A stretch of 17,753 nt of DNA from a virus: IMG/VR virus record IMGVR_UViG_3300035678_000011; one strand, given 5' to 3'. Both the position numbers and the translations under genes were made by a program. Shown here in pieces: positions 1-17,753 of the stretch (position 1 is its first letter; each line of letters begins with the position of its first letter). Under the pieces are notes generated by a model. That model ran no database searches and was not told where the DNA came from. It worked only from the letters and a program-made list of their open reading frames with translations.

Positions 1-127
1 GCCGCCGCAGCCCGCGATCATGGTCACGCCCAGCACGTACGGGCCGCCGCCGACCGGGGGCCGATGATGGCCGAGCCGATGGACTTCACCGTGGTCGGCC
101 CGGACGGCGACGGCGACACCTGGTTTG
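1..127. repeat. Exact 127-bp terminal direct repeat, left copy (identical to 17627..17753)
   Basis: Compared base by base: gccgccgcagcccgcgatcatgg...gacacctggtttg is present at both window ends. It carries the 3' end of CDS 17235..17693 (stop TGA 65-67) and the first 64 nt of CDS 64..423. This implies a circular or terminally redundant unit of 17,626 bp. Confidence 0.97.
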
Positions 128-2659: not shown

Positions 2660-4758
2660 AGCGCGTACCTCCCAGGGGTCGCCACGTGGATTTCACTGCC
2701 GGCCGGCAGCGACTTGGTGACGCCGTTGATGTGCCGTGTCACCGTGCCGACTTGCAGGAACGGGCCGGTCCCGGTGACCGCTCCCATGGCGGTCACCATC
2801 ACCACCTCACCCGCGATCGTGACGGGGTAGGGGACGCCCGCGGTGGACCACACATCGCCCGGGTTGACGGTGCTGAACGTGATGGCGGTCGCGCTCGAGT
2901 TGTACAGCGCGGCGGTGGTGGTGCTGCCACTGTCGTAGCGGCTCGTGCCGTACACGCCCGGGTTGAACAGCTCGCCCGGCACCGTCGTGAACATGATCTT
3001 GCGGGTGATGGCGCCCACCACGTGCGTGATGCCGATGACGATCACGGGGATGAGGTCGGCTTCGTAGCCGGCCACGGTGAGCAGGTCGCCGATATCCACC
3101 GCGGACGCCGCGGCGACCAGGCCGGGGTTGGCGACCAGGTCGATGGTGACGCTGGCGTACCGGGACCGCGGCAGGGTGCCCCGCTTGAGCCACCAGCCGC
3201 AGAGCAGCGGCAGGTCGTTGTCCGGGTCGTTGACGTTGACGTCGACCTGCTGCTTGGCCTCACCCACCCCGGCCGGCGGCGGCTGCACGCTCATGGGACC
3301 CGTGGTGAGGATCATCTCGACGTCGGCGCCGTCGCGCTGGCTGACGATGATCCGGTTGTGGGTGCCCAGGTCGCCGATGATCTCCCGGAACGGGCTGGTG
3401 ATGTGCGTAGGGAAGGTGAGCGCCATGGCCGCGGTCTGGTTGTACCGGTCGGCGCGGGTGCGCATCGTCAACCCGATGACCGTCCTGGTGTCGTAGATCA
3501 TCCCGTCTTCGGTGGTGACGATCTCTTTCAGCAGGTTGAGGAAGGTGTCGGCCCGCTCGGGTCCCATCGGCCGGGTGTTGGCCGCCACACCCCGGACCGT
3601 CCAGGTCAAGCCCTTGTAGATCATGAGCCGGGCGAACCGGTCGGCGGCTTTCTCCCCCCGATATCCCAGGAACGCGGCGGTGCGGTCCGCCGAGTTGAGG
3701 TCGTCGGTCACCCCGGTCACGCCCAGCACGTGGCCGTACGTGGCGCCGCTGGAGAACGCGGTGCCGGTGATGCCCCAGATCTGCAGCGAGCTGGTCACCG
3801 CGCCCGCATAGGTGGGGGTGAACAGGGCGATGAACGCGCTGCCCTCGGTATACCAGGACACCTCAACCGACACGGTGCCCGCGGACACGGTGCATTTGAC
3901 CCGGAACAGATTCCACTGTGTCCAGTCGGTGTCCGACACGTCCACTAAGGAACTGATCACGCTCGTGCCGTCGCCCAGCTGGGTGATGACCTGCAGATTC
4001 GTGTCCGTGAAGATCAGCGCGCCGATGGTGCCGTCGGCCAGCCGCCAGTCGAAAAACTCGGAGAACGTACCGAGCACCGGGCGGGTCGGGAACTTGACCG
4101 CAAAGGACAGCTGCCACCCCGCGGTGGTCGACGCGACCGCCTTGAAATAGCCGGTCATGAATCCCGGGTCGGGCACGTCGATCAGCGGTTCGGAGCCCGG
4201 CGGGCGCTCCTGCGACTCGAAGTTGACCGCCTGCAGCACCCCGCCGTGCGCGCCGTCGACCGGGCTGAACAGCTCCTTGACGCCGCGCTTGTCCTCCATC
4301 GGGAAGTAGCCGACCGACGACGCGTAGGCCGAGTTCAGCCGGTACATCGGTGAGCGCAGCGGTTCGGTCCACTGCGCGATCCGGGCGAGCAGCCCGTACG
4401 CCTCGAGATCCACCCAGGCGCGGCCGAGACCGGCCGCCCGGTCGAAGTCGATGGTGCGGTCCGGCCGCCACTCGGTGGCCTCCACCACGGCGAGAATGTC
4501 GGTGCCGACGGACAGCCGGGCCGGGGTGTTCCGGCCGGCCTTGCCGTACAGCGGACTCTCCGGGTTGGAGGGCCGGAACTTGTCGGTGGCGTTGTTGAAC
4601 GCCAGCATCCCGGACGCGGCGCGCAGCGCGGCGCCCTCCTCGCCCTGCCCGCGGGTCACCCGGATCTCGTCGGCGGAGAACAGCTCGGTTTGCGCGGCGA
4701 CGGTGTTCCACACCCCGTCGTAGAACAGCTCCACTTTCGCGTCCTGCAAGGTGGCCAT
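2656..4758 (-). CDS. Large minor tail protein (700 aa), distal-tail/baseplate-hub-like
   Basis: True start taken as ATG 4758 (MATLQDAKVELFYDGVWNTV...), sharing 1 nt with the tape-measure stop (TGATG). The N-terminus resembles siphovirus distal tail proteins (..IRVTRGQGEEG..NPESPLYGKAGRNTPARL). The upstream 200 codons of track ORF 2656..5358 overlap the tape measure gene and are Arg-rich junk. Confidence 0.8.
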   Translation of the reverse strand: MATLQDAKVELFYDGVWNTVAAQTELFSADEIRVTRGQGEEGAALRAASGMLAFNNATDKFRPSNPESPLYGKAGRNTPARLSVGTDILAVVEATEWRPDRTIDFDRAAGLGRAWVDLEAYGLLARIAQWTEPLRSPMYRLNSAYASSVGYFPMEDKRGVKELFSPVDGAHGGVLQAVNFESQERPPGSEPLIDVPDPGFMTGYFKAVASTTAGWQLSFAVKFPTRPVLGTFSEFFDWRLADGTIGALIFTDTNLQVITQLGDGTSVISSLVDVSDTDWTQWNLFRVKCTVSAGTVSVEVSWYTEGSAFIALFTPTYAGAVTSSLQIWGITGTAFSSGATYGHVLGVTGVTDDLNSADRTAAFLGYRGEKAADRFARLMIYKGLTWTVRGVAANTRPMGPERADTFLNLLKEIVTTEDGMIYDTRTVIGLTMRTRADRYNQTAAMALTFPTHITSPFREIIGDLGTHNRIIVSQRDGADVEMILTTGPMSVQPPPAGVGEAKQQVDVNVNDPDNDLPLLCGWWLKRGTLPRSRYASVTIDLVANPGLVAAASAVDIGDLLTVAGYEADLIPVIVIGITHVVGAITRKIMFTTVPGELFNPGVYGTSRYDSGSTTTAALYNSSATAITFSTVNPGDVWSTAGVPYPVTIAGEVVMVTAMGAVTGTGPFLQVGTVTRHINGVTKSLPAGSEIHVATPGRYAL

Positions 4759-5741
4759 CAGCGCTTGCCGCCCAGCACGACGTCGGTGGTGCCGCGGCGC
4801 CGCACGGCCTTGCTCACCGCTTCGACCAGGGCGTCGTCGAACGCGGAGCCGGCGGAGCGGATCTCGAGCACCACCGTGCCGCCGCCGCGGGACGCCATCG
4901 AGCCGATCTTCTCGCCCGCCTGCAGCACCGCCACGGTCGGGGTGCCGGGCACACCGCCGACGACGCCTCCCGCGTGGAAGGTGGGCAGCTTGGGTACCGA
5001 GATCGAGTTGCCGCCGATGCCGGGCACCCAGCCGGGCACCGTCCAGGACAGCCGGCCGATCGTGTTGTTCCACAGTTTCGCCACGGCGTTGAAGCCGATC
5101 CGGAACGGCAGCGTGATGAAGTTGGCGATCTTGCCGAATGCGTCGCCGATCCAGCCCGGGACCTTCTTCAGCCAGTCCCACACATTCGACGCGGATTTCT
5201 TGATCCATCCCCAGGCGGCACCCCACGCCTTGGAGAACCAGTCGGTCTTCTTCGCGATCAGCACAATGATCACGATCAGGGCGACGATCGCGACGACTAT
5301 CCACGTGATCGGCGACGCGAACATGGCTGTGTTCATCAGCCATTGCGCGGCCGTCCACACCCGGGCGGCGCCCGCGGCGACCTTCTGCGCGGCCGCCTGC
5401 GCGAGGGTGGCCACCTTGGTCTGTGCCAGGGACATGATCAGCGGCGCCAGGCCACCGGCCAGGTCCGCCCAGCCTTGAATGTAGGCGACGATGCCCTGCT
5501 TACCGGGGCCTTTCATGATCGTCGCGGTGCCGTCGATGACGTCGTGGACGCCGATGAGGTTGCGCTCGGAGTTGTCCGCGGCCTCACCCACCCGGTTCAA
5601 CCCGCCGGTGTGTCCGTCTATTTCGCGGGTGGCGCCGCCGACCTTGTCGGACATGCCCTTAGCGGACGCTCCGACCCGGTCGAACGAGTCTTCGATCGGC
5701 TTGCTCTCACCCGCAAACGTGAGGGTTACCTGGTTGGGCAT
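4758..5741 (-). CDS. Tape measure protein (short, 327 aa)
   Basis: It sits between the chaperone/gp10-like genes and the tail-tip genes. It has a central hydrophobic segment (ASPITWIVVAIVALIVIIVLIA) and Trp-rich repeats (KAWGAAWGWIKK, NVWDWLKKVPGWIGDAFGKI). ATG 5741 shares 1 nt with the upstream stop. Confidence 0.85.
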   Translation of the reverse strand: MPNQVTLTFAGESKPIEDSFDRVGASAKGMSDKVGGATREIDGHTGGLNRVGEAADNSERNLIGVHDVIDGTATIMKGPGKQGIVAYIQGWADLAGGLAPLIMSLAQTKVATLAQAAAQKVAAGAARVWTAAQWLMNTAMFASPITWIVVAIVALIVIIVLIAKKTDWFSKAWGAAWGWIKKSASNVWDWLKKVPGWIGDAFGKIANFITLPFRIGFNAVAKLWNNTIGRLSWTVPGWVPGIGGNSISVPKLPTFHAGGVVGGVPGTPTVAVLQAGEKIGSMASRGGGTVVLEIRSAGSAFDDALVEAVSKAVRRRGTTDVVLGGKR

Positions 5742-6151
5742 CAGCGCACCTCGAGCCCGGCCTCAGTGGCCAGCCGGGCCAGCGCGCGGGACATGATCTC
5801 GGTGACCTCGGCGTGCCGGACCTCGAGCCCCTTGTACACGTACCGGCCGCCGCGGATGAAGTCCCGTTTGGGTGGCCGGCCGTGCACCCTGCCCTGCCCT
5901 CCGAAATCCAGCCACGGCGCGTACGGCGCCTTGCGGCCACCCAGCGCGATCCGGGCCTCCCGCTGGCTCGAGCGGGCTTTCAGCGACGCCGCGGCGGCGC
6001 CGGTGTCGTGCGGCATCCGCGGCTGCGCGTAGTCGATCACCGCCTGGCTGGCCTCGTTCAACGCCAGCCGCAGCTGTTTCGGCAGACCCGCTTCCATCGC
6101 CTTGAGGGAGCGCTGGAATTCGCGGAGCCCAGTGATCTCGATCCTGGCCAT
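5741..6151 (-). CDS. HK97 gp10-family head-tail joining / tail completion protein (136 aa)
   Basis: Sequence: MARIEITGLREFQRSLKAM...ASQAVIDYAQPRMPHDTGAAAASLKA...ARIALGGRKAPYAPWLDFGG. It fits the gp10-family pattern (G..e....L, P.dTG.L, .YA...eFG). The start abuts the upstream stop (TGAATG). Confidence 0.7.
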   Translation of the reverse strand: MARIEITGLREFQRSLKAMEAGLPKQLRLALNEASQAVIDYAQPRMPHDTGAAAASLKARSSQREARIALGGRKAPYAPWLDFGGQGRVHGRPPKRDFIRGGRYVYKGLEVRHAEVTEIMSRALARLATEAGLEVR

Positions 6152-6635
6152 TCACGCACCCGCTTTCAAACGCTCTAATTCCTCGGCCTGCATCTTCCGC
6201 GAATAGAACCGCGACCAGAGCACGAACTCGTCGTTGTCCATGATCTCGATCATCTGCCGGCGGGTCATGCCCAGCTTCTGCGCAAGGTAGAACTCGAATT
6301 CGAGGTCAGGATTGTTCTCCAGCGCCAGCCACGCCGCTTTTCCCGGCGCCCTTCTTGAGCCCCGACAGTTCGGCGACCGCGTCGGACACGGCGACCAGGT
6401 CGCCCGCGTCGGCGACACCCGCCCACACGGCGACGTCGTCACGGGTCAGCACCGGGTTGGTCATGCCGGTCGCGATGATGAAGTTGTCCCGGTCGGACAG
6501 CGACTCCATCTCCTGCATCTCGATCACCTCGTCCCGGGTCAGCGCCCGGATCGCCACGGTGGAACCGTCGAGCAGGGTGGCGGTGCCCTTGCCGGTCTTG
6601 CGGGCCAGGATCTGCGAGCGGGTCAGATGAGCCAT
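6152..6635 (-). CDS. Tail assembly chaperone, frameshifted long (G-T-like) product, about 160 aa
   Basis: A second frame stays open from 6442 to TGA 6152-6154 and reads ..GKAAWLALENNPDLEFEFYLAQKLGMTRRQMIEIMDNDEFVLWSRFYSRKMQAEELERLKAGA. It is +1 (equivalently -2) relative to the G frame. The two frames can be joined at GGGAAAAG (6344..6337). Confidence 0.55.
6306..6635 (-). CDS. Tail assembly chaperone, short (G-like) product, 109 aa
   Basis: Lies directly downstream of the major tail gene. SD AGGGGGAAA is about 9 nt before ATG 6635. Sequence: ..VAIRALTRDEVIEMQEM...AVSDAVAELSGLKKGAGK. An overlapping extension frame is present (see 6152..6635). Confidence 0.75.
   Translation of the reverse strand: MAHLTRSQILARKTGKGTATLLDGSTVAIRALTRDEVIEMQEMESLSDRDNFIIATGMTNPVLTRDDVAVWAGVADAGDLVAVSDAVAELSGLKKGAGKSGVAGAGEQS
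6337..6344 (-). promoter_or_regulatory. Candidate recoding (slippery) site GGGAAAAG
   Basis: The G frame reads GCC GGG AAA AGC and the extension frame reads CCG GGA AAA GCG. tRNA-Lys on AAA can re-pair on the next AAA one base 3' (+1). This is the only homopolymeric run in the 6306-6442 two-frame overlap. Confidence 0.45.
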
Positions 6636-6649
6636 GGTGCGGTTTCCCC

Positions 6650-7060
6650 CTACGGCAGTGCGGTGGTGGTCACCGGGCCGGAGATCTCGATCTCCGCCGA
6701 CCAGGTGATCATGTCGTCGTTCGGGTTGGTCTCGACGTACTTGGTCAGCACCCCCGCGAAAGCGTCGTTGGGCTTGCCGGTGCCCGTACCTTCCAGGTTG
6801 CGGACCACCGCGACCGTGGTGCCCAGCAACGCCTTGAGCGCGTTGCGCGGGCCGACCGACACGGTGTTGTCGTACACCCCGCCCATCGTGAACTTGCCGT
6901 CGAGCAGGCCACCCGACTTGGTCTTCGCGCCGCCGGTCGGGCTGTAGCCGGTCGTCTCGTGGAAGTCCGCCGTGCCCTCGTAGCTCGAGGTCTTGCAGTA
7001 CGGCGAGATGTCCTTGGTCGCGACTTGGATCTTGGTGAATTGCCCGTGCACGGTGGCCAT
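6650..7060 (-). CDS. Major tail protein (136 aa)
   Basis: Sits immediately upstream of the chaperone pair. SD GGAAGGGG is about 10 nt before ATG 7060. Gly/Thr-rich beta-type protein ending ..DDMITWSAEIEISGPVTTTALP. Function assigned mainly by synteny. Confidence 0.72.
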   Translation of the reverse strand: MATVHGQFTKIQVATKDISPYCKTSSYEGTADFHETTGYSPTGGAKTKSGGLLDGKFTMGGVYDNTVSVGPRNALKALLGTTVAVVRNLEGTGTGKPNDAFAGVLTKYVETNPNDDMITWSAEIEISGPVTTTALP

Positions 7061-7062
7061 GG

Positions 7063-7467
7063 CTAGGCGCCCCTTCCGACGATGTCCAGGTGAAAGATGA
7101 CGGCCAGGTAGTCCGTACCGGCGTACTTGGCGTTGTCGAACTCGGCGTAGCTCACCCGCACCGAGTCACACGCCACCCAGGCGTGCGCGAACAGCACCGC
7201 CTTGACCGACGACGCCCCCGACCCGGCCGCGTACGCGGCGAGCTGCTTACGGGCCGTGCGCACGTTCGTCACCCCGACCAGGATGACGACCGGCAGGTCC
7301 GGGTAGTTGTCGACGCCGCGGCCGTACGTCAGGTACTCGATCCGCTCCGGCAGGGCCACGATCGCCGCGGGCGGGCTGATCTTCTCCACACCCCAGGCGG
7401 GCACCCGCAGACCGGCGATGCTGCCCAGGGTGGTCCCGATCTCCAGCGAGACAGCTTCCAGGTCCAT
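7063..7467 (-). CDS. Head-tail joining / tail terminator-like protein (134 aa)
   Basis: Clean ORF between the adaptor and major tail genes with 2-4-nt gaps. Size and position fit neck/tail-terminator proteins. No decisive motif. Confidence 0.55.
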   Translation of the reverse strand: MDLEAVSLEIGTTLGSIAGLRVPAWGVEKISPPAAIVALPERIEYLTYGRGVDNYPDLPVVILVGVTNVRTARKQLAAYAAGSGASSVKAVLFAHAWVACDSVRVSYAEFDNAKYAGTDYLAVIFHLDIVGRGA

Positions 7468-7471
7468 GCCG

Positions 7472-8074
7472 TCACCCGACCTTCCGGCGCCGGGACAGCC
7501 CGGCGAGGGTGGTGGCCACGTCCGGGTCGAGCTTGGCGAGCAGCCGCAGTTCGGAGCCCTGGTCGGGGGAACCGGCCACGCCGAGCGGGCTGTCCCGGCG
7601 AGCGTTCCACCGGTTCAGCTGCAGCCGGCCGGCCGTCGGCACCTGCGCGGGCACCGCCGACCAGCCCCAGCGGGCCACCACGGCGTTGCTGATCGGCTGC
7701 CCCGGATAGCTCGGGTACGGCCAGGTGACGAACCCCAGGGCCGTCCAGGGCTTGCCGTCGGCGGGTGCGTTGTCGGGCAGCAACGTCGCCCCCGAACTCG
7801 CGTACGCCACCCCGTTGATCGTCATGCCGGTCAGGTCCTGCACGTCGTCGATCTCCAGCGTCCAAAACCCGGTCGTCGGGTCGTAGAACGGGGTGCGCCG
7901 GTACACCCGGGTCGCCGGGGCGGCCAGTTGGCCGAACTGCCGGTTACAGCGGCGGTCGATGGCGCGGGACGCCGACGTGATCCACAGGGCGATCTCGACG
8001 TCGTCGATGGCGTCGCCCACCCTCAGGAAGTTCTTGGCCTCCGGCAGGGTCAGATAGTCGGGTTTCCACGCCAT
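7472..8074 (-). CDS. Head-tail adaptor/connector (gp6-like N-terminus), 200 aa
   Basis: MAWKPDYLTLPEAKNFLRVGDAIDDVEIALWITSASRAIDRRC matches the gp6-like connector signature (L.eaK..LR....dD..I...i.aA). At 200 aa it may be longer than a simple adaptor, so it may carry an extra C-terminal domain. Confidence 0.72.
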   Translation of the reverse strand: MAWKPDYLTLPEAKNFLRVGDAIDDVEIALWITSASRAIDRRCNRQFGQLAAPATRVYRRTPFYDPTTGFWTLEIDDVQDLTGMTINGVAYASSGATLLPDNAPADGKPWTALGFVTWPYPSYPGQPISNAVVARWGWSAVPAQVPTAGRLQLNRWNARRDSPLGVAGSPDQGSELRLLAKLDPDVATTLAGLSRRRKVG

Positions 8075-8080
8075 GGCCGG

Positions 8081-8566
8081 CTACTCGCTCTCGACGTCTG
8101 CCGGCGGCACGTCGGACCGCTTGCCGGCCGGGCCGGTGATGCCGGGCGTGCCGGCCACCGCCGGGTCGATCAGCCCGTCGGCTACCGACGGGTAGACGTA
8201 GGTGACGCCGCGGATGTTGGCCGGCTGGGATAGGGCCGCCTTGGCGATCTCCCGCCGGTCGGTGCCCGGCTTCGGGTCGCCGATCTCGACGCCGGATTGG
8301 GTGTCCGACTTGGCCAGCTCGGCGCGGACCTGGTCGACGGTCATCAGCCGGCCGCCGATGTTTGCGACGCCGTGCCGCTCGAGCTCCTGCCGGTCGCCCT
8401 CGGACAGGAAAAACGTCTGCGCGGGCTGATACGTGCGGCCGGCGGTGGCCAGCCCGGTCGCGGCGACCAGCTGACCGCGCAGGTTCTCGTTCTCGGCCTG
8501 CGCCGCGGCGAGCCGCTGCTCCAGGTCCGCCTTCGTACCGGGCGCGGGCGCCTCAGAATCGGACAT
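8081..8566 (-). CDS. Hypothetical head-associated protein (161 aa) with N-terminal coiled-coil-like segment
   Basis: Strong SD GAGGAG 6 nt before ATG 8566. Sequence: ADLEQRLAAAQAENENLRGQL, then a Gly/Pro-rich region. It lies directly downstream of the capsid gene. Function unknown. Confidence 0.7.
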   Translation of the reverse strand: MSDSEAPAPGTKADLEQRLAAAQAENENLRGQLVAATGLATAGRTYQPAQTFFLSEGDRQELERHGVANIGGRLMTVDQVRAELAKSDTQSGVEIGDPKPGTDRREIAKAALSQPANIRGVTYVYPSVADGLIDPAVAGTPGITGPAGKRSDVPPADVESE

Positions 8567-8585
8567 CGATACTCCTCAACTCGGG

Positions 8586-8613
8586 TGCACCGGCGCCCAT
8601 AGACGCCGGTGCA
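8586..8613 (-). terminator. Hairpin downstream of capsid ORF (terminator/attenuator or mRNA stabiliser)
   Basis: tgcaccggcg (8586-8595), loop cccataga, cgccggtgca (8604-8613): a perfect 10-bp stem. It lies in the 121-nt gap after the stop at 8688. No U-tract. Confidence 0.5.
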
Positions 8614-8687
8614 TATTCGCTGCTCAACCACACACACAAGATCGGATGGCGCCGCCGAATCCCACACCGCGGGATGGCGCCGGCGGT

Positions 8688-11600
8688 TTACACCGGGTCG
8701 TAGACCAGCTCGCGGGTACCGGCGAAGTCGGTCACGCCGAACGCCTTGTAACCCCAGATGCCCATGTCCACCCAGGCCACCCGCCAGGTGATGTCGATGC
8801 GCTGCGGAGCGGACGCCCAGCCGCACACCTTCTCCGGGTCGAACATGTAGCTGCTGGCCGCGTTGATCGAGGTGGCCGCGGTGGCCCACGCGGGGATCCA
8901 GAGCTTGCCGTGCGCGTCGAGCGAGTCGTAGCGGGGGTCGGCGGTGCCGACGGCGTTCTGTGCCCCGATCGACGGGTACAGCCGGCGGCCGTTGGAGTCC
9001 TTGGCCTTGACCATGGCCGAGTACAGGTCGATCTGGGTGTACACGTTGCGGAACCGGTCACCGCCGCGGATGAACTTCAGCGGGATCAGCCCGGTCGCGA
9101 TCGCCTGATCCAGGGCCGAGTCGACCGCCGCGGTGGTGATCGTGATGTCGGTCATCGACGCGGCCACCGCGACCAGCTGGGCCACCGCGAACGCTTCCAG
9201 GGCCTCGAAGTAGCCGCGGGTCATCTGCCGGTAGATCAGCCCACTCATCTGCGGGTTGCCGCCCTGGTCGAACGCCTCCCGGGTGATCTCCACCTTGCCC
9301 GACACGGGCGACGGGGTGATGGTCTGCGCGGTCGCGGTGAACGTGCCCGGGGTCGGCTCGGTGCCGGTGACGTGGTCGGCGACCAGGCCGGAGCTCGAGT
9401 TGAACTTGGGGATGACGAACGGGGTAACCGCGTCGAGGGTGCCCTTGTTGATCGCGTCCCAGATCGGGTACTGGAATTCCATCTGGTCGACGTACATGTC
9501 CGGCCGGTTCTGCGGGTAGTTGAGGTTCACGACGTTGGCCGGGGTGATCGCGAACTGCTGCGGGTCCGGGTCGGCGTACTGGTCGCGCAGGAACCCTTCG
9601 GCCCGGTCGCGGGAGCCCTGGTCGCCGCCGCCGCCCTCACGCCACCCGGCGAGCAGGTCGGCGCTGAAATCGTGGGTGCCCCGGCGCAGGTTGCCGGTCC
9701 GGTCGAACCGGTACGGGGAAGGCTCGCGGACCTGCGCTGGCCCGTGGTGCGGGTTGACGACCAACGGCGGCTGCGGGGCGCCGTTGGCGTCCAGCGGGAT
9801 GGGCGTCACGCCAGCCTGCTGCGCGGCGACCCACGCCTGGAATTGCTCGAACGTGGCGCCCGCGCCGGGGTTCGGCACGGCCGGCGGCACCGCGGCCGGC
9901 GGGGCGGTCTGGCGCAACTGCGCGATGAACGTCTGGCACGCGATGTTGGCTGCGTGCTTGTGGCCGCAATGCTGGCATGGGTCCACGGTGGTGCCTCCTG
10001 TCAGGTCCGCGGCCACCTTGGTCACGCGGGCGTTGTCGAACGCGGGCAGATGGGTCGAGCTGGTCTCACGCCACGTCGCCCGGACCACGTCGTAGACCTG
10101 GTCGTCTTCGTTGAAAACGACGTCGCCGTCTTCGGGGTACATGCTGAAATCGACGCCGACCGACAGCCCGGTGTACATGCCGTGCGCTGCGTCGTAGAGC
10201 AGCCCGTCGCGCTGGGCTTTCTGCGGGGAGCCTTCCGGGCCGTCCAGGATCGACAGCTCGACGGTCGGGCCAGCCGCCGAATCGGTGATCGACTTGTGCA
10301 TACCGACCGGGTCACCGTGGTTCTTGAGCACCGGCATCCGGTCCGGCGACGAGTACTCCAGGCTGCCCGGCTTGAACCGGTATTTGATGCCGAACTTCGT
10401 CGCGACCTGGTTGTAGGGCACGGCCAGGCCGGTGATCGTGCGGGCGCCCTCGTCGACGGTCGGCGCGGCCACCGGCGCACCGTCGAACTCCGACCAGTCG
10501 AAGGTCATCGTTTGGGGCGCGTCGAAGGTGACCCGCGGCCGGGCCTTGCTCTGCTGGCCGGCCGCCGCTTCCTTGGCCTCGCCCGCGGCGGCGCGGGTGA
10601 CCACGTCGGCGGGAATGCCGGCCTGCTCACCGATCCACTGTTCGTCCACCACACCCATGTCCTGTAACGCCTTCCAGTAGGTGGTCTGGGCGACCGGGTC
10701 GGGTTTGAGGTAGTCGGACAGGTCGAACCGGGGTGCGTAGCCGCGCCGGGTCACATCGCCCATCGCCAGGCGATCGGTGAGCGCGGACATGTACGGCGCG
10801 TACATCCGGTTGATCTTGTCCCGGCGGCGCGCGTCCTCGTTCTGATAGGTGCGCGACGTGGTGGACACCCCCAGGTCCTCCGGGTCGACGCCGAGCCCGT
10901 TCGCGATCGCGATCGTCACCTGCGACTGCAGCTCGGACAGGGTCAAGTCTTTCGGCGACGGCGACGTCACGTCGGAGCGCTGCACCGTCGACGGGATCCA
11001 GCCGAACGGCCGGTACTGGCGCATCGCCCCGTACTCGGCTAGGAACAGGTCCACCTCGTCGTCGTCGAGCGGGTCAACGTCGGAGGCCGGATTGTCGGTG
11101 AAGAACTCGCGCAGCGCCGGGTTCTCGGCGTACATCTCGGTCAGCCGGTCCAGTTTGATCGCGATCCGGATGGCCCGCGCGTTGGCTGCCAGGATGCCCG
11201 GGTTCGGGCTGTCGAAGCGGATCATCAACGCCGACGGGAACGGCTGCCAACCCTTGCCGTCGCAGTGGTCGATCCACACGTACCGCTTGTCCTCGGCGGC
11301 CACGCCGGTGCGGTCCAGCGGCGGGATGCCGGGCAGGTTCGTGTTCGGCGACCGGCCGGGCTTGGTCAGCGACACCTTCCGCGGGTCGATGCGCCGCACG
11401 CTGGCCGGGTAGTTGTCGAAATCTTGGCCGGTGACCTGCCACCAGGCGATGTGCTCGAACGCCAAGTCTTCGATCGTCATGGCCATGTGCACCACGTTCG
11501 GCACGTCCGGGTCGAACTGCCGAAATAGGGCCGAGTCGACCACCGCAGGCCCGCGGTACAGACGCAGCGGCAGCGTGGAGATCGAGCAGATTTCGTTGCG

Positions 11601-11801
11601 GCCGCGTTGCACCGCCGCCACCGAGAGGGCCGCCTCGCGGGAGACGACGGTCATCTCCCCGTTCTTCATCGCGGCCAGCACCATGTCGACTGGGCGCGGG
11701 GCGGTGTCGAAGGTGTGCGTCGGCTCGAGGTCGAGGGTGATCATCCGTGGCGGGGTGACGAGATCCCGCATGACCTGCACTGCTGTGCGCACCCATCCCA
11801 T
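8688..11801 (-). CDS. Portal - S78 prohead protease - HK97-fold major capsid protein fusion ORF (1037 aa)
   Basis: N-terminal ~400 aa are portal-like (..RGRNEICSISTLPLRLYR.., ..TSRTYQNEDARRRDKINRMYAPY..). Residues ~430-610 are HK97-type protease (ITGLAVPYNQ.., VLKNHGDPVG, YTGLSVGVDF, ETSSTHLPAFDNA). The C-terminal ~300 aa are HK97-family MCP (..PIWDAINKGTLDAVTPFVIPKF.., ..VEITREAFDQGGNPQ.., ..WGYKAFGVTD..). I saw no stop or frame break in 3,114 nt. Confidence 0.85.
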   Translation of the reverse strand: MGWVRTAVQVMRDLVTPPRMITLDLEPTHTFDTAPRPVDMVLAAMKNGEMTVVSREAALSVAAVQRGRNEICSISTLPLRLYRGPAVVDSALFRQFDPDVPNVVHMAMTIEDLAFEHIAWWQVTGQDFDNYPASVRRIDPRKVSLTKPGRSPNTNLPGIPPLDRTGVAAEDKRYVWIDHCDGKGWQPFPSALMIRFDSPNPGILAANARAIRIAIKLDRLTEMYAENPALREFFTDNPASDVDPLDDDEVDLFLAEYGAMRQYRPFGWIPSTVQRSDVTSPSPKDLTLSELQSQVTIAIANGLGVDPEDLGVSTTSRTYQNEDARRRDKINRMYAPYMSALTDRLAMGDVTRRGYAPRFDLSDYLKPDPVAQTTYWKALQDMGVVDEQWIGEQAGIPADVVTRAAAGEAKEAAAGQQSKARPRVTFDAPQTMTFDWSEFDGAPVAAPTVDEGARTITGLAVPYNQVATKFGIKYRFKPGSLEYSSPDRMPVLKNHGDPVGMHKSITDSAAGPTVELSILDGPEGSPQKAQRDGLLYDAAHGMYTGLSVGVDFSMYPEDGDVVFNEDDQVYDVVRATWRETSSTHLPAFDNARVTKVAADLTGGTTVDPCQHCGHKHAANIACQTFIAQLRQTAPPAAVPPAVPNPGAGATFEQFQAWVAAQQAGVTPIPLDANGAPQPPLVVNPHHGPAQVREPSPYRFDRTGNLRRGTHDFSADLLAGWREGGGGDQGSRDRAEGFLRDQYADPDPQQFAITPANVVNLNYPQNRPDMYVDQMEFQYPIWDAINKGTLDAVTPFVIPKFNSSSGLVADHVTGTEPTPGTFTATAQTITPSPVSGKVEITREAFDQGGNPQMSGLIYRQMTRGYFEALEAFAVAQLVAVAASMTDITITTAAVDSALDQAIATGLIPLKFIRGGDRFRNVYTQIDLYSAMVKAKDSNGRRLYPSIGAQNAVGTADPRYDSLDAHGKLWIPAWATAATSINAASSYMFDPEKVCGWASAPQRIDITWRVAWVDMGIWGYKAFGVTDFAGTRELVYDPV
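9984..9999 (-). promoter_or_regulatory. Internal ribosome-binding site plus in-frame GTG inside the fusion ORF
   Basis: The minus strand reads ACAGGAGGCACCACCGTGGAC: AGGAGG (9999..9994), a 7-nt spacer, then GTG (9986..9984). The GTG is in frame with the stop at 8688 (1,299 nt). It falls just after the protease domain. Confidence 0.35.
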
Positions 11802-11829
11802 GATCGGGAGTGTACGACGATCGGACAGA

Positions 11830-13413
11830 TTATCCGCTCACGCCGGTGCGGACAGTCCGGACCACCTTCCGCGGGGTCGGCATGGTCCGGGCCAGATGCA
11901 CCGCCCCGGCCGCCGCGTACATCGCGTCGACGTGCCCGGCGCCGCGGCGGGTGAACACCCACCGGTCACCGGTCCACAGTTTCTCGGCGCCCTCGGCCTG
12001 GGCGTCGAGCAGGTCTTGCCCGGAGTGCGCGATCATCACCGCCGACACCCGCTCGGCGAGCCCCATCACCACCGCGGGCACCTCGGCCGCCTGCAGCTCC
12101 TTCACGGTGACGCCGCGCGGCGGCCACGCTGCCCGGCCGCCCTTGGCCCGCCGGTCCCGCAGCGTGGCGTCCAACGTCGCCGCGGGGCCTCCCGGAAACC
12201 AGCCGAACACCTTCGGGCGTACGCGGGTGATCCAGCCGGGCAGGTCGGCCAGGCACCGGGCCAGGGCGTCCGGGCCATCCCACGAGCGGACCGCTTCCAC
12301 CCGGGTCCGCCCGTCGGCCATCATGGCCGCCGCCGTGAGGGTGGCGTGTTGCTGGTCGGGGGACACGTCGATGCACGCGGCCAGCCGGGTCCGCTCGTCC
12401 AGGTCCAGCGGTCCCGGGTCGCGGCAGCCTTTCCAGCCGGCCGGGCTGATCGCCGGGTCCAGCTGGTCGACCGCCATGCACATGATCTCCGTCAGGAACC
12501 CGGTCAGTTCCTCCGGGTCGGCGCCGGGCTTGGCCACCCGCCGGGCCGCCGCGATGATCGTCTCCGGGTCCATGCGCCGCCCGTACTGCGGGTTGGCCGC
12601 GGCGTGGCCGGCGGTGTCCATCGGGTGCGTGCCGGGCGCCGCCGACCACTCGAAGATGCCGACCGGGCGCTCGAGCGCCAGGCTCGCGATCGCGTCGGCG
12701 CGCAACGAGTTGAGCACCACCGAGCGGGCGTCGCCCATGTTCGTGATGTAGACAACCTGCGCGCGCGGGCGCGCATTCATGGCGTTGTACGCGGCGTGGT
12801 ACGCCTCCCACGTGTGTTGCTCACGGAGCTCGTCGCCGATCGCCCGGTCGATGCTCTTGCCGCGCCCGCCCTTGCGGTCGGCGGCGCCGATCTTGTACCG
12901 GCAGCGGTCGACGGTCGCGACCACCTGCTGGCCGTTGCCGATCCGCTTGTGCTTCGGGAACCGCGGCATGAGCGCAACCAGGACAGGCGTCGCTTCGGCG
13001 AGTTCGACCGCGGCCTCCCACGCTTCCTTCGCCTGCTCGAGGTTCGTGCTCGTCCCGAACACCAGCGGCCACCGCTCGATGAACAGCCAGAACAGGGCGA
13101 GCACCTTGCAGAGGTGGGTCTTGCCGTTCTGCCTGGCCACGATCACCAGGACCTGTCGGAACCGCGGCCGGCCGTCGGCGAGCATCTCGCCGAGGTGGAT
13201 CACCAGCCACTGCTGCCACGGGTCGAGTGGCTGGCCGAGGATCACCGCGGCGAAGTGGATCACCGCGTAGCCGTAGCTAGTCCTCGGTGTCAGCCGCCGT
13301 AACGGCCGGGTCCACAGCCGCGGCGTAATCGAGCCCAGTGGTAGGGGCGCCTGCAGCGGCGTCGGCTCGGAGTCGCTCGAGCTCAGCAGTCGCAGGGTCG
13401 ACAACCGTCTCAC
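11830..13413 (-). CDS. terL: Terminase large subunit (527 aa)
   Basis: Walker A-like VIVARQNGKT. The N-terminal ..ITPRLWTRPLRRLTPRTSYGYAVIHFA..LGQPLDPWQQW is typical of Terminase_1-type large subunits. GTG 13413 is preceded by GGGAG 5 nt upstream. The start is uncertain (TTG 13404 is an alternative). Confidence 0.9.
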   Translation of the reverse strand: MRRLSTLRLLSSSDSEPTPLQAPLPLGSITPRLWTRPLRRLTPRTSYGYAVIHFAAVILGQPLDPWQQWLVIHLGEMLADGRPRFRQVLVIVARQNGKTHLCKVLALFWLFIERWPLVFGTSTNLEQAKEAWEAAVELAEATPVLVALMPRFPKHKRIGNGQQVVATVDRCRYKIGAADRKGGRGKSIDRAIGDELREQHTWEAYHAAYNAMNARPRAQVVYITNMGDARSVVLNSLRADAIASLALERPVGIFEWSAAPGTHPMDTAGHAAANPQYGRRMDPETIIAAARRVAKPGADPEELTGFLTEIMCMAVDQLDPAISPAGWKGCRDPGPLDLDERTRLAACIDVSPDQQHATLTAAAMMADGRTRVEAVRSWDGPDALARCLADLPGWITRVRPKVFGWFPGGPAATLDATLRDRRAKGGRAAWPPRGVTVKELQAAEVPAVVMGLAERVSAVMIAHSGQDLLDAQAEGAEKLWTGDRWVFTRRGAGHVDAMYAAAGAVHLARTMPTPRKVVRTVRTGVSG

Positions 13414-14400: not shown

Positions 14401-14672
14401 CCGCGGCCGGCCGAATTTCGGGGCACCGGGTCCGCGGCGGCCGGCTGTTGCTCGAGCTGGGATCGATCAGAGTCGATCGCTACAGGTCGTGACGGGTCCG
14501 TGAAAATCGGCGTGGATCGGTCCGGGGGGAGAGAAAAACAGGGCGCGGGTGTCCGCCCACCTCCTGTGCCGGGAAAAAACGCGGCCTGCGCGCGGGCCAA
14601 CGCCTCGAGCCCGCCCGTCGCGATGTGCTGATGCGCGACGCCAGGTCCGGGACAGTTCGGGCAGTCGTTCAC
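14397..14672 (-). CDS. Doubtful ORF (91 codons); only the 5' third looks coding (VNDCPNCPGPGVAHQH..)
   Basis: GTGA overlaps at both ends. From about 14590 down to 14400, third-position G/C drops and homopolymer runs appear, so the 3' two-thirds may be non-coding. Confidence 0.3.
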   Translation of the reverse strand: MNDCPNCPGPGVAHQHIATGGLEALARAQAAFFPGTGGGRTPAPCFSLPPDRSTPIFTDPSRPVAIDSDRSQLEQQPAAADPVPRNSAGRG

Positions 14673-17238: not shown

Positions 17239-17693
17239 GCGGTGAGCACCGGGCGCCCGGACAGCTGTTCCGGGCGCCGGGCGGCCGGGCGGGCCAGCCG
17301 GACGGGCGGCACACCGCGGAATACGTCGCTCGCAACGGCGTCGGCATCGTCGGCATGTACCCCGCGGGGGCGGCCGGCCGGGTGTCGCTCGCCGAGCACC
17401 TCGCCGACCCGAACCCGGACCGCGGCGGCCGATTCGATCCCCTCCCAGGAAGGCAGGACATGACCCATCATCGTCCCGAATATGTGCCGGTCGAGGCGCA
17501 TTACGTCAACCCGCCCGGGGCGCCGCCGCGCGCCCGCCGGGCTGTGATCACCACCGCGGCGCTGCTGGTCGCGATCGCCGCGGCCGCGGTCACGTTCACG
17601 CTGTGCACGGGCTGGCTGGCCAGCCAGCCGCCGCAGCCCGCGATCATGGTCACGCCCAGCACGTACGGGCCGCCGCCGACCGGGGGCCGATGA
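17235..17693 (+). CDS. Membrane-anchored hypothetical protein (152 aa; alternative start ATG 17460 giving 77 aa)
   Basis: GTG 17235-17237 overlaps the upstream TGA (GTGA), and the frame keeps G/C-rich third positions from there. The alternative ATG 17460 has a GGAAGG SD 6 nt upstream. One TM helix (AVITTAALLVAIAAAAVTFTLCTGWLA). The stop overlaps the next ATG (ATGA at 17690-17693). Confidence 0.6.
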   Translation: MSGEHRAPGQLFRAPGGRAGQPDGRHTAEYVARNGVGIVGMYPAGAAGRVSLAEHLADPNPDRGGRFDPLPGRQDMTHHRPEYVPVEAHYVNPPGAPPRARRAVITTAALLVAIAAAAVTFTLCTGWLASQPPQPAIMVTPSTYGPPPTGGR

Positions 17694-17753
17694 TGGCCGA
17701 GCCGATGGACTTCACCGTGGTCGGCCCGGACGGCGACGGCGACACCTGGTTTG
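17627..17753. repeat. Exact 127-bp terminal direct repeat, right copy (identical to 1..127)
   Basis: See left copy. Bases 17690..17753 are a truncated duplicate of the start of CDS 64..423. Confidence 0.97.

Follow-up and report, generated by a model that had tools for sequence, protein, structure and literature searches.

A small soil phage probably makes extra capsid protein from the message of its fused portal-protease-capsid gene

Nested protease/scaffold genes are classical in viral head assembly, the described cases including lambda C/Nu3 (reportedly the work of Shaw and Murialdo in 1980), Mu I/Z (reportedly that of Grimaud in 1996) and herpesvirus UL26/UL26.5. In lambda C/Nu3 and Mu I/Z, a short and abundant assembly protein is made from an internal Shine-Dalgarno (SD) sequence and start codon and shares its 3′ end with a protease-bearing long form, and in the lambda C/Nu3 type the shared C terminus targets the protease to the prohead. 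Here we describe a 17,753-nucleotide (nt) stretch of viral DNA (IMG/VR record IMGVR_UViG_3300035678_000011; the whole stretch is called the window below), in which one long open reading frame (ORF) of the minus strand encodes portal, protease-like, scaffold-like and major capsid protein (MCP) domains in a single chain and carries, behind its protease-like part, an AGGAGG hexamer followed at 7 nt by an in-frame GTG (Table 1). On the strength of comparisons with relatives, we consider it likely that this AGGAGG-N7-GTG is a functional internal initiation site nested in frame in the polyprotein gene, from which this small soil phage probably makes extra capsid protein using the same message.

The organisation recalls that of lambda C/Nu3 in that the short ORF is in frame and 3′-coterminal with the long one, has its own conserved SD and start, and leaves the protease N-terminal in the long form. 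Unlike in lambda, the shared part comprises a scaffold and the capsid protein itself, and the long form also bears the portal; the likeness is one of organisation, with the short form here predicted and no sequence homology found or claimed. Herpesvirus UL26/UL26.5 shows the same in-frame, 3′-coterminal nesting of a minor protease-scaffold and a major scaffold, and in its wider fold class the herpesvirus protease groups with the prohead proteases of phages. However, UL26.5 has its own promoter and mRNA, whereas the present locus has an SD instead and no conserved promoter-like element inside the ORF, and the herpesvirus portal and capsid proteins are encoded by separate genes. With respect to these systems, the new elements appear to be that the capsid itself is the nested product, that the long form includes the portal, and that the two starts are apparently of different initiation modes.

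A second group of similar loci is found in small actinophages (Microbacterium EE; Arthrobacter AN, AX and FE; Gordonia CW and DM; Rhodococcus RRH1), which have genomes of ~15-18 kb and the same gene order, and in which one ORF holds an S78-type protease, a scaffold and an HK97-fold capsid, much as the present ORF does with its protease-like domain. In those phages a separate portal gene ends in a stop that overlaps the start of the fusion gene, whereas here the portal is fused as well, without an intervening stop, as it is in 72 of 80 distinct relatives. Protease-scaffold-capsid fusions have been described as common in small-genome actinophages and likened to lambda (PMC7302621, PMC5513430), with no mention of an internal start in either paper, and the GenBank records of the actinophage fusion genes annotate a single coding sequence (CDS). 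No description of a portal-protease or portal-capsid fusion was found in the searchable literature. The predicted short product also resembles HK97 gp5, a capsid protein with a built-in scaffold, the delta domain (PMC10275583), since in both an N-terminal non-shell region precedes the HK97-fold domain; HK97 gp5 differs in being an ordinary separate gene, with a delta domain that has no CCHC motif and with protease (gp4) and portal (gp3) encoded separately.

On the minus strand the site reads GACCTGAC-AGGAGG-CACCACC-GTG-GACCCATGC, the hexamer being formed by three consecutive codons of the long ORF. The sequence-only reading had proposed an AGGAGG, a 7-nt spacer and an in-frame GTG, leading to a 432-amino-acid (aa) protein made of a scaffold-like region and the MCP. 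Coordinates and frame are confirmed [(11801-9986)/3 = 605], the length of the product is correct and its C-terminal part has an HK97 capsid fold. The nested product would share frame and stop with the long ORF and would begin (M)DPCQHCGHK. The duplex computed between the SD and the anti-SD at the 3′ end of the 16S rRNA has an energy of -11.9 kcal/mol, which ranks 21st among 1,386 start-type triplets on both strands, while most plausible gene starts lie at about -8 to -12. The GTG at 9986 is therefore preceded by an SD stronger than those of most genes, as had been claimed, although the further claim that it is the strongest in the window is somewhat overstated, given values of -16.7 at 13404, -15.1 at 7467 and -12.4 at 6151. 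It is noteworthy that, among the three AGGAGG copies present on the two strands of the window, only that at 9999..9994 has a start codon at a usable distance. Local mRNA structure at the site is also weaker than the average of the ORF (-10 to -11 vs -14 kcal/mol). Two other roles for this region were set aside: no slippery heptamer was seen by eye after the SD, either in the window or in homologues, as would be required of a frameshift stimulator, and an out-of-frame ATG at 9978 (ORF 9637..9978) is separated from the SD by 15 nt and fails to recur as a start in homologues.

That the motif goes beyond chance follows only from comparison with relatives. In an alignment of 77 proteins, Gly602 and Gly603 are ~95% conserved and are followed by one or two variable residues and then by Met or Val, the column of V606 holding Met in 44 and Val in 30 sequences, with Met or Val displaced by 1-2 positions in the other three. 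At the nucleotide level, all 37 close sequences (36 loci and the window) show [A/C]GGAG[G/A], 4-8 nt and then ATG or GTG. An SD-like tract and a start are kept at the homologous place in relatives at 37-44% identity, and likewise in a broader scan of loci at 41-51% identity; two relatives (L034 and L037) have lost the Cys motif that lies downstream and retain AGGAGG-N7-GTG. The residues encoded by the tract vary among the distant relatives (TGG, DGG, KES, NGD, KGR, REG, ERG, KGD), and the purine tract is constant. Conservation of the SD in homologues had been named as a check on the internal start, and SD and start are indeed kept in 80 of 80 distinct junction sequences, 72 of which sit in ORFs with more than 400 codons upstream. 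The start is ATG in 61 and GTG in 19; 70 of the 80 have a contiguous SD match of 5 nt or more, and 43 one of 6 nt or more; and between the GGAGG core and the start there are 4 nt in 31 junctions and 7 nt in 41, within the functional range.

The position is also unique within these genes. When all in-frame starts were scanned in 34 non-redundant ORFs, an SD of at least 5 nt followed by a start was found here in 33 of 34, against a background for other such sites of ~1 per 1000 codons. The next-best internal site, found in 14 of 34, is an AAGGA that comes from conserved Lys-Asp codons inside the portal; all others occur in at most 4, and the scan revealed no conserved start at the portal/protease junction. 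Three 'stand-alone' proteins that seemed to begin at the internal Met (P0187, P0209 and P0266) were discarded as evidence: P0187 and P0209 are cut at a contig edge with the upstream frame open and so do not represent genes of their own, and their contigs still carry the SD.

Codon usage separates constraint on the nucleotides from constraint on the protein. GGA makes up 6.8% of Gly codons overall and GGC 59%, yet at codon 602 GGA stands in 31 of 32 sequences and at codon 603 in 20 of 31, and among the 34 conserved Gly columns examined its share goes above 9.7% in none of the rest. In a ranking of 983 aligned columns by rare-codon use, codons 601 (ACA/TCA) and 602 (GGA) are the top two and codon 603 is fifth. 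These per-column rare-codon scores and codon counts at conserved Gly columns replaced a sliding-window measure of synonymous-site conservation, which was dropped because it is swamped by codon bias at third positions (GC3) and cannot resolve a 6-nt element. The scan of in-frame starts, the Gly codon counts and the column ranking thus serve as three controls, and they show selection at the level of nucleotides.

The same data bear on the possibility that only the protein is constrained, by a Gly-Gly linker or a cleavage site, and that the likeness to an SD and a start is incidental. The strong conservation of G602 and G603 as residues in close homologues would fit such a constraint, as would the location of the site between two domains, in a disordered linker of the kind in which one expects cleavage sites. 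However, GGC would encode glycine just as well as the GGA that is almost always found at codon 602, the preceding rare ACA or TCA codon supplies the A of AGGAGG, distant relatives exchange Gly-Gly for KE, EG, RE, GD and other pairs while keeping the purine run, and the downstream residue is Met or Val only, never Ile, Leu or Phe, as ATG and GTG codons would dictate. A start and a cleavage site might both be present, yet the latter would leave the codon and Met/Val facts unexplained; a protein-level constraint as the sole explanation is thus very unlikely.

SD-like sequences within genes have been proposed to slow elongating ribosomes, an effect that is disputed, and the location of the site at a domain boundary would suit a translational pause that helps the protease to fold before the capsid part emerges, with no initiation involved. 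For a pause a start codon would be superfluous, yet every one of the 80 distinct junctions has an ATG or GTG behind the tract; no similar element exists at the portal/protease boundary; and full-length translation alone would leave portal and capsid equimolar. We therefore give a pause little credence.

We likewise consider it very unlikely that the site is a decaying relic of formerly separate protease and capsid genes, now functionless, even though arrangements of the expected kind exist. One relative (L139, 3051..6320) has separate genes, with overlapping stops and starts, for a portal (426 aa) and a ClpP-type protease (231 aa), and has as its capsid gene a free-standing homologue, 439 aa long, of the short product; other relatives have a separate portal gene whose stop overlaps the start of a protease-capsid fusion gene. 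A relic would be expected to decay toward preferred codons, whereas the rare codons are held down to ~37-45% identity in both fused architectures, and the portal/protease junction keeps no trace of a start. The free-standing homologue in L139 makes it plausible that the short product is a self-sufficient capsid precursor, and comparison of the sequences indicates that the same scaffold-capsid module is there paired with a different protease family. Finally, a chance AGGAGG before a GTG in a GC-rich ORF, which might be entertained because AGGAGG is not enriched in the window (3 copies vs 5.9 +/- 2.6 expected) and GTG codons are very common in the genome, is refuted by the recurrence of SD and start at the homologous position in 33 of 34 ORFs against a background of ~0.001 per codon.

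The start of the long ORF itself is of a different nature. Its ATG has no SD and is preceded by a -10-like hexamer (Table 1) whose TANNNT pattern recurs 6-7 nt ahead of the homologous ATG in 24 of 26 loci, amid otherwise variable sequence; of 33 more distant loci, 29 have it 6-8 nt ahead of the start. Within the ORFs this pattern is nearly absent, at most 2 of 34 sequences carrying it at any one position. A scan for E. coli-type promoters and terminators between 8400 and 12200 had no hit at the start of the portal or ahead of the internal start; since promoters of Actinobacteria are without a clear -35 element, the conserved TANNNT was used in place of that scan. The arrangement suggests that TACACT is a putative promoter of a leaderless mRNA, as in Actinobacteria. 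The ORF interior has no conserved TANNNT, which speaks against a promoter of the short product's own, and that product would accordingly be translated from this one mRNA.

Taken together, we propose that one mRNA would give rise to two proteins, a 1037-aa full-length chain and a 432-aa CCHC-scaffold-capsid protein. The full-length chain would be translated from the 5′-proximal ATG, probably at the very 5′ end of a leaderless transcript, and the short protein from codon 606, with initiation led by the SD. This shorter chain would provide the large excess of capsid subunits needed for the head, and the long product the portal and protease in low, matched amounts; in the absence of a conserved start at the portal/protease junction, the protease would be made only within the long chain, in step with the portal. 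Because the long form ends in the same capsid domain, it could in addition bring the protease into the assembling shell, the part that shared C termini play in lambda C/Nu3 and in UL26/UL26.5. The present fusion could have been created by loss of a portal stop overlapping a protease-capsid start, which would leave this logic unchanged. What the analysis shows is the sequence and its frame, the order of the domains and the conservation of SD and start as nucleotides, from which we go on to infer initiation by ribosomes at codon 606; the ratio of the products, the leaderless transcript and the co-assembly of the long form are likewise inferences.

A fused head gene poses a stoichiometry problem, with 12 portal subunits required against a few hundred capsid subunits, to which a conserved internal start would be a simple answer. 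Judged from other small HK97-fold capsids, a genome of ~17.6 kb is likely to be packaged in a T=3 or T=4 capsid, which corresponds to roughly 175-235 capsid subunits vs 12 portal subunits, an excess that full-length translation alone could not supply. The proposal of the sequence-only reading that nested translation resolves the conflict between portal and MCP numbers is accordingly strengthened on the side of the site itself, by the conserved SD and start, the drifting encoded residues and the uniqueness of the position, while its stoichiometric part follows by reasoning from subunit numbers. More tentatively, and in a reading that we hold to be less likely than not, two initiation modes on one mRNA may set capsid stoichiometry throughout this ~17-kb actinophage family, a leaderless polyprotein nucleating the shell with portal-matched protease and SD-led initiation providing the bulk subunit.

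Several points weigh against internal initiation or against the need for it. Within the window alone the motif is statistically ordinary. The computed strength of its SD is high, yet lies below that of three other starts, and the opening of mRNA structure is modest (rank ~64-127 of 980 windows, about the top tenth). Ten of the 80 junctions have a contiguous SD core of only 4 nt. Four of the nine cultured fusion-gene phages described below (Schiebs, SallySpecial, Emperor and Yavru) have no obvious start after the protease, so that a fusion gene does not strictly need one. In addition, Actinobacteria translate leaderless mRNAs well, and the 5′ start therefore need not be the weaker of the two.

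Table 1. Features of the fused head gene and of its proposed internal start, with comparable sites in cultured phages
Feature	Position	Strand	Basis or remark
Long ORF, 1037 codons, 113 kDa: portal, protease, scaffold-like region and MCP	8688..11801	minus	Translation
-10-like hexamer TACACT (TANNNT)	11809..11814	minus	7 nt upstream of ATG 11801
ATG of long ORF	11801..11799	minus	No SD; duplex energy -1.5
Portal domain, ~aa 55-410	10572..11639	minus	Pfam, AlphaFold2, Foldseek
Prohead-protease-like domain, ~aa 430-582	10056..10514	minus	PHROG, relatives, invariant His495 and Ser547
Predicted disordered linker, aa 583-605, with SD in its last codons	9987..10055	minus	AlphaFold2
AGGAGG Shine-Dalgarno	9999..9994	minus	From codons 601-603 (ACA GGA GGC)
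Spacer CACCACC, 7 nt	9993..9987	minus	Between AGGAGG and GTG
In-frame GTG, proposed internal start	9986..9984	minus	Codon 606 of ORF 8688..11801
Nested ORF, 432 aa, 46.7 kDa (predicted)	8688..9986	minus	CCHC motif, scaffold-like region and capsid domain
C-x2-C-x3-H-x5-C motif (C609, C612, H616, C622)	9936..9977	minus	Alignment
Pro/Ala-rich, partly helical region, aa 623-780	9462..9935	minus	Low-confidence AlphaFold2, short helices
HK97-fold MCP domain, ~aa 781-1037	8691..9461	minus	Pfam, Foldseek
Kels (L053), SD-like tract and ATG	gp5 codon 176		Unannotated
RRH1 (L134), SD-like tract and ATG	codon 274		Unannotated
Noelani (L052), SD-like tract and ATG	codon 166		Unannotated
Decurro (L130), SD-like tract and ATG			After the protease
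Atraxa (L131), SD-like tract and ATG			After the protease

The domain structure of the long ORF was examined in a full-length AlphaFold2 model, built on the alignment of 77 homologues and with a mean predicted local distance difference test (pLDDT) score of 72. The model shows, in order, the portal, a disordered segment (residues 409-426), a beta-rich domain (~430-582), a second disordered segment (582-602), a hairpin and helix, a poorly ordered stretch and a folded region from ~780. The portal is matched by Pfam PF04860 (Phage_portal) at aa 73-385, and in a Foldseek search the portal module matches the HK97 portal 8cez_A with an E value of 7.5e-13. A look-up of the window's own protein product returned no record.

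By several lines of evidence, the middle domain is protease-like. Its PHROG matches are phrog_2263 (4e-15) and the head maturation protease family phrog_80 (2e-4), and it is 35% identical to the protease part of proteins annotated as 'major capsid and protease fusion' in Microbacterium and Arthrobacter phages. PF04586 (Peptidase_S78) is matched by 21 of 56 aligned relatives, the window's own segment having no Pfam match, and a sequence profile search of the PDB gave no protease match. His495 and Ser547 are invariant columns among the aligned homologues, and are presumed to be catalytic by analogy with HK97 gp4. The beta-rich domain is followed directly by the disordered linker, where pLDDT falls below 50 at residues 582-602 and whose length and sequence vary among relatives, which agrees with the earlier placing of the site just after the protease domain.

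The region between the internal start and the shell domain consists of two parts. The CCHC motif, which begins 2-3 residues past the internal start, is invariant in 77 of 77 aligned proteins and missing in some distant relatives, and AlphaFold2 places a small hairpin and helix at aa 605-631. The motif resembles a zinc knuckle, with a Cys2-to-Cys4 distance equal to that of the retroviral CCHC knuckle; a motif of this kind is not known to us from any other scaffold or delta domain. The Pro/Ala-rich region that follows (aa 623-780) has no family match in Pfam or PHROG and presumably plays the role of a scaffold or delta domain, its position matching that of the scaffold part in protease-scaffold-capsid fusions (PMC7302621). 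The C-terminal domain is matched by PF25209 (Phage_capsid_4) at aa 782-1028 with 4.6e-9, and in Foldseek by HK97 prohead and head chains with E values of ~1e-8, for example 8fqk_A at 1.8e-8.

Among nine cultured fusion-gene phages examined, five show an SD-like tract and an in-frame ATG right after the end of the protease (Table 1). These small actinophages can be grown and engineered, and so could be used to test the idea. If it is true, internal initiation would extend the logic of lambda C/Nu3 and UL26/UL26.5 to the capsid protein itself and would apply to a large uncharacterised group of minimal tailed phages. It would also imply that single-CDS annotation misses a product in many cultured actinophages (among them Kels, Decurro, Atraxa, RRH1 and cluster EE). 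Such genes would offer a natural system in which leaderless and SD-led initiation share one mRNA, and might find use in the design of minimal self-assembling capsids.

The two ends of the window are exact direct repeats of 127 bp (1..127 and 17627..17753), which indicates a complete genome of 17,626 bp assembled as a circle. The fusion is not an assembly error, since the complete domain order recurs in more than 120 clusters (at 90% identity) of proteins 970-1080 aa long, mostly from ~17-kb contigs. The family comprises 355 IMG/VR relatives, with loci labelled L001-L129, and includes three bacterial copies (L049-L051) in Micromonospora globispora, in M. mirobrigensis (inside a 569-kb contig) and in an Actinoplanes sp. 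When the window was compared with these three loci by blastn, 3.7-8.7 kb could be aligned, only within the head-to-tail structural block (~4291-13338); tblastx matches spanned the whole of each locus and marked no prophage borders. No integrase was recognised in the window. The family may represent widespread ~17-kb actinophages, of which soil metagenomes contain hundreds and Micromonospora and Actinoplanes carry prophage-like copies.

Three further observations concern other parts of the window. A third AGGAGG (14565..14560, in the segment 14520..14590 of the minus strand) lies between the T-runs GTTTTTTCCC ... CTGTTTTTCTCTCC with no start at a usable distance, and the segment may act as a terminator or in regulation where the early genes begin or end. 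A 327-aa ORF (4758..5741, minus strand) matches endolysin and tape-measure PHROGs at 2e-24, and its TGA stop shares bases with the ATG that opens the next long ORF (2656..~4761, minus strand), which has no Pfam match; the tape-measure function may be split over these two ORFs. Finally, the strongest computed SD of the window (GGGAGCGGGGGTGA, -16.7) precedes a TTG at 13404 on the minus strand, in the large-terminase frame and 9 nt inside the longest ORF call, so that the large terminase probably starts at this TTG, overlapping the small-terminase gene.

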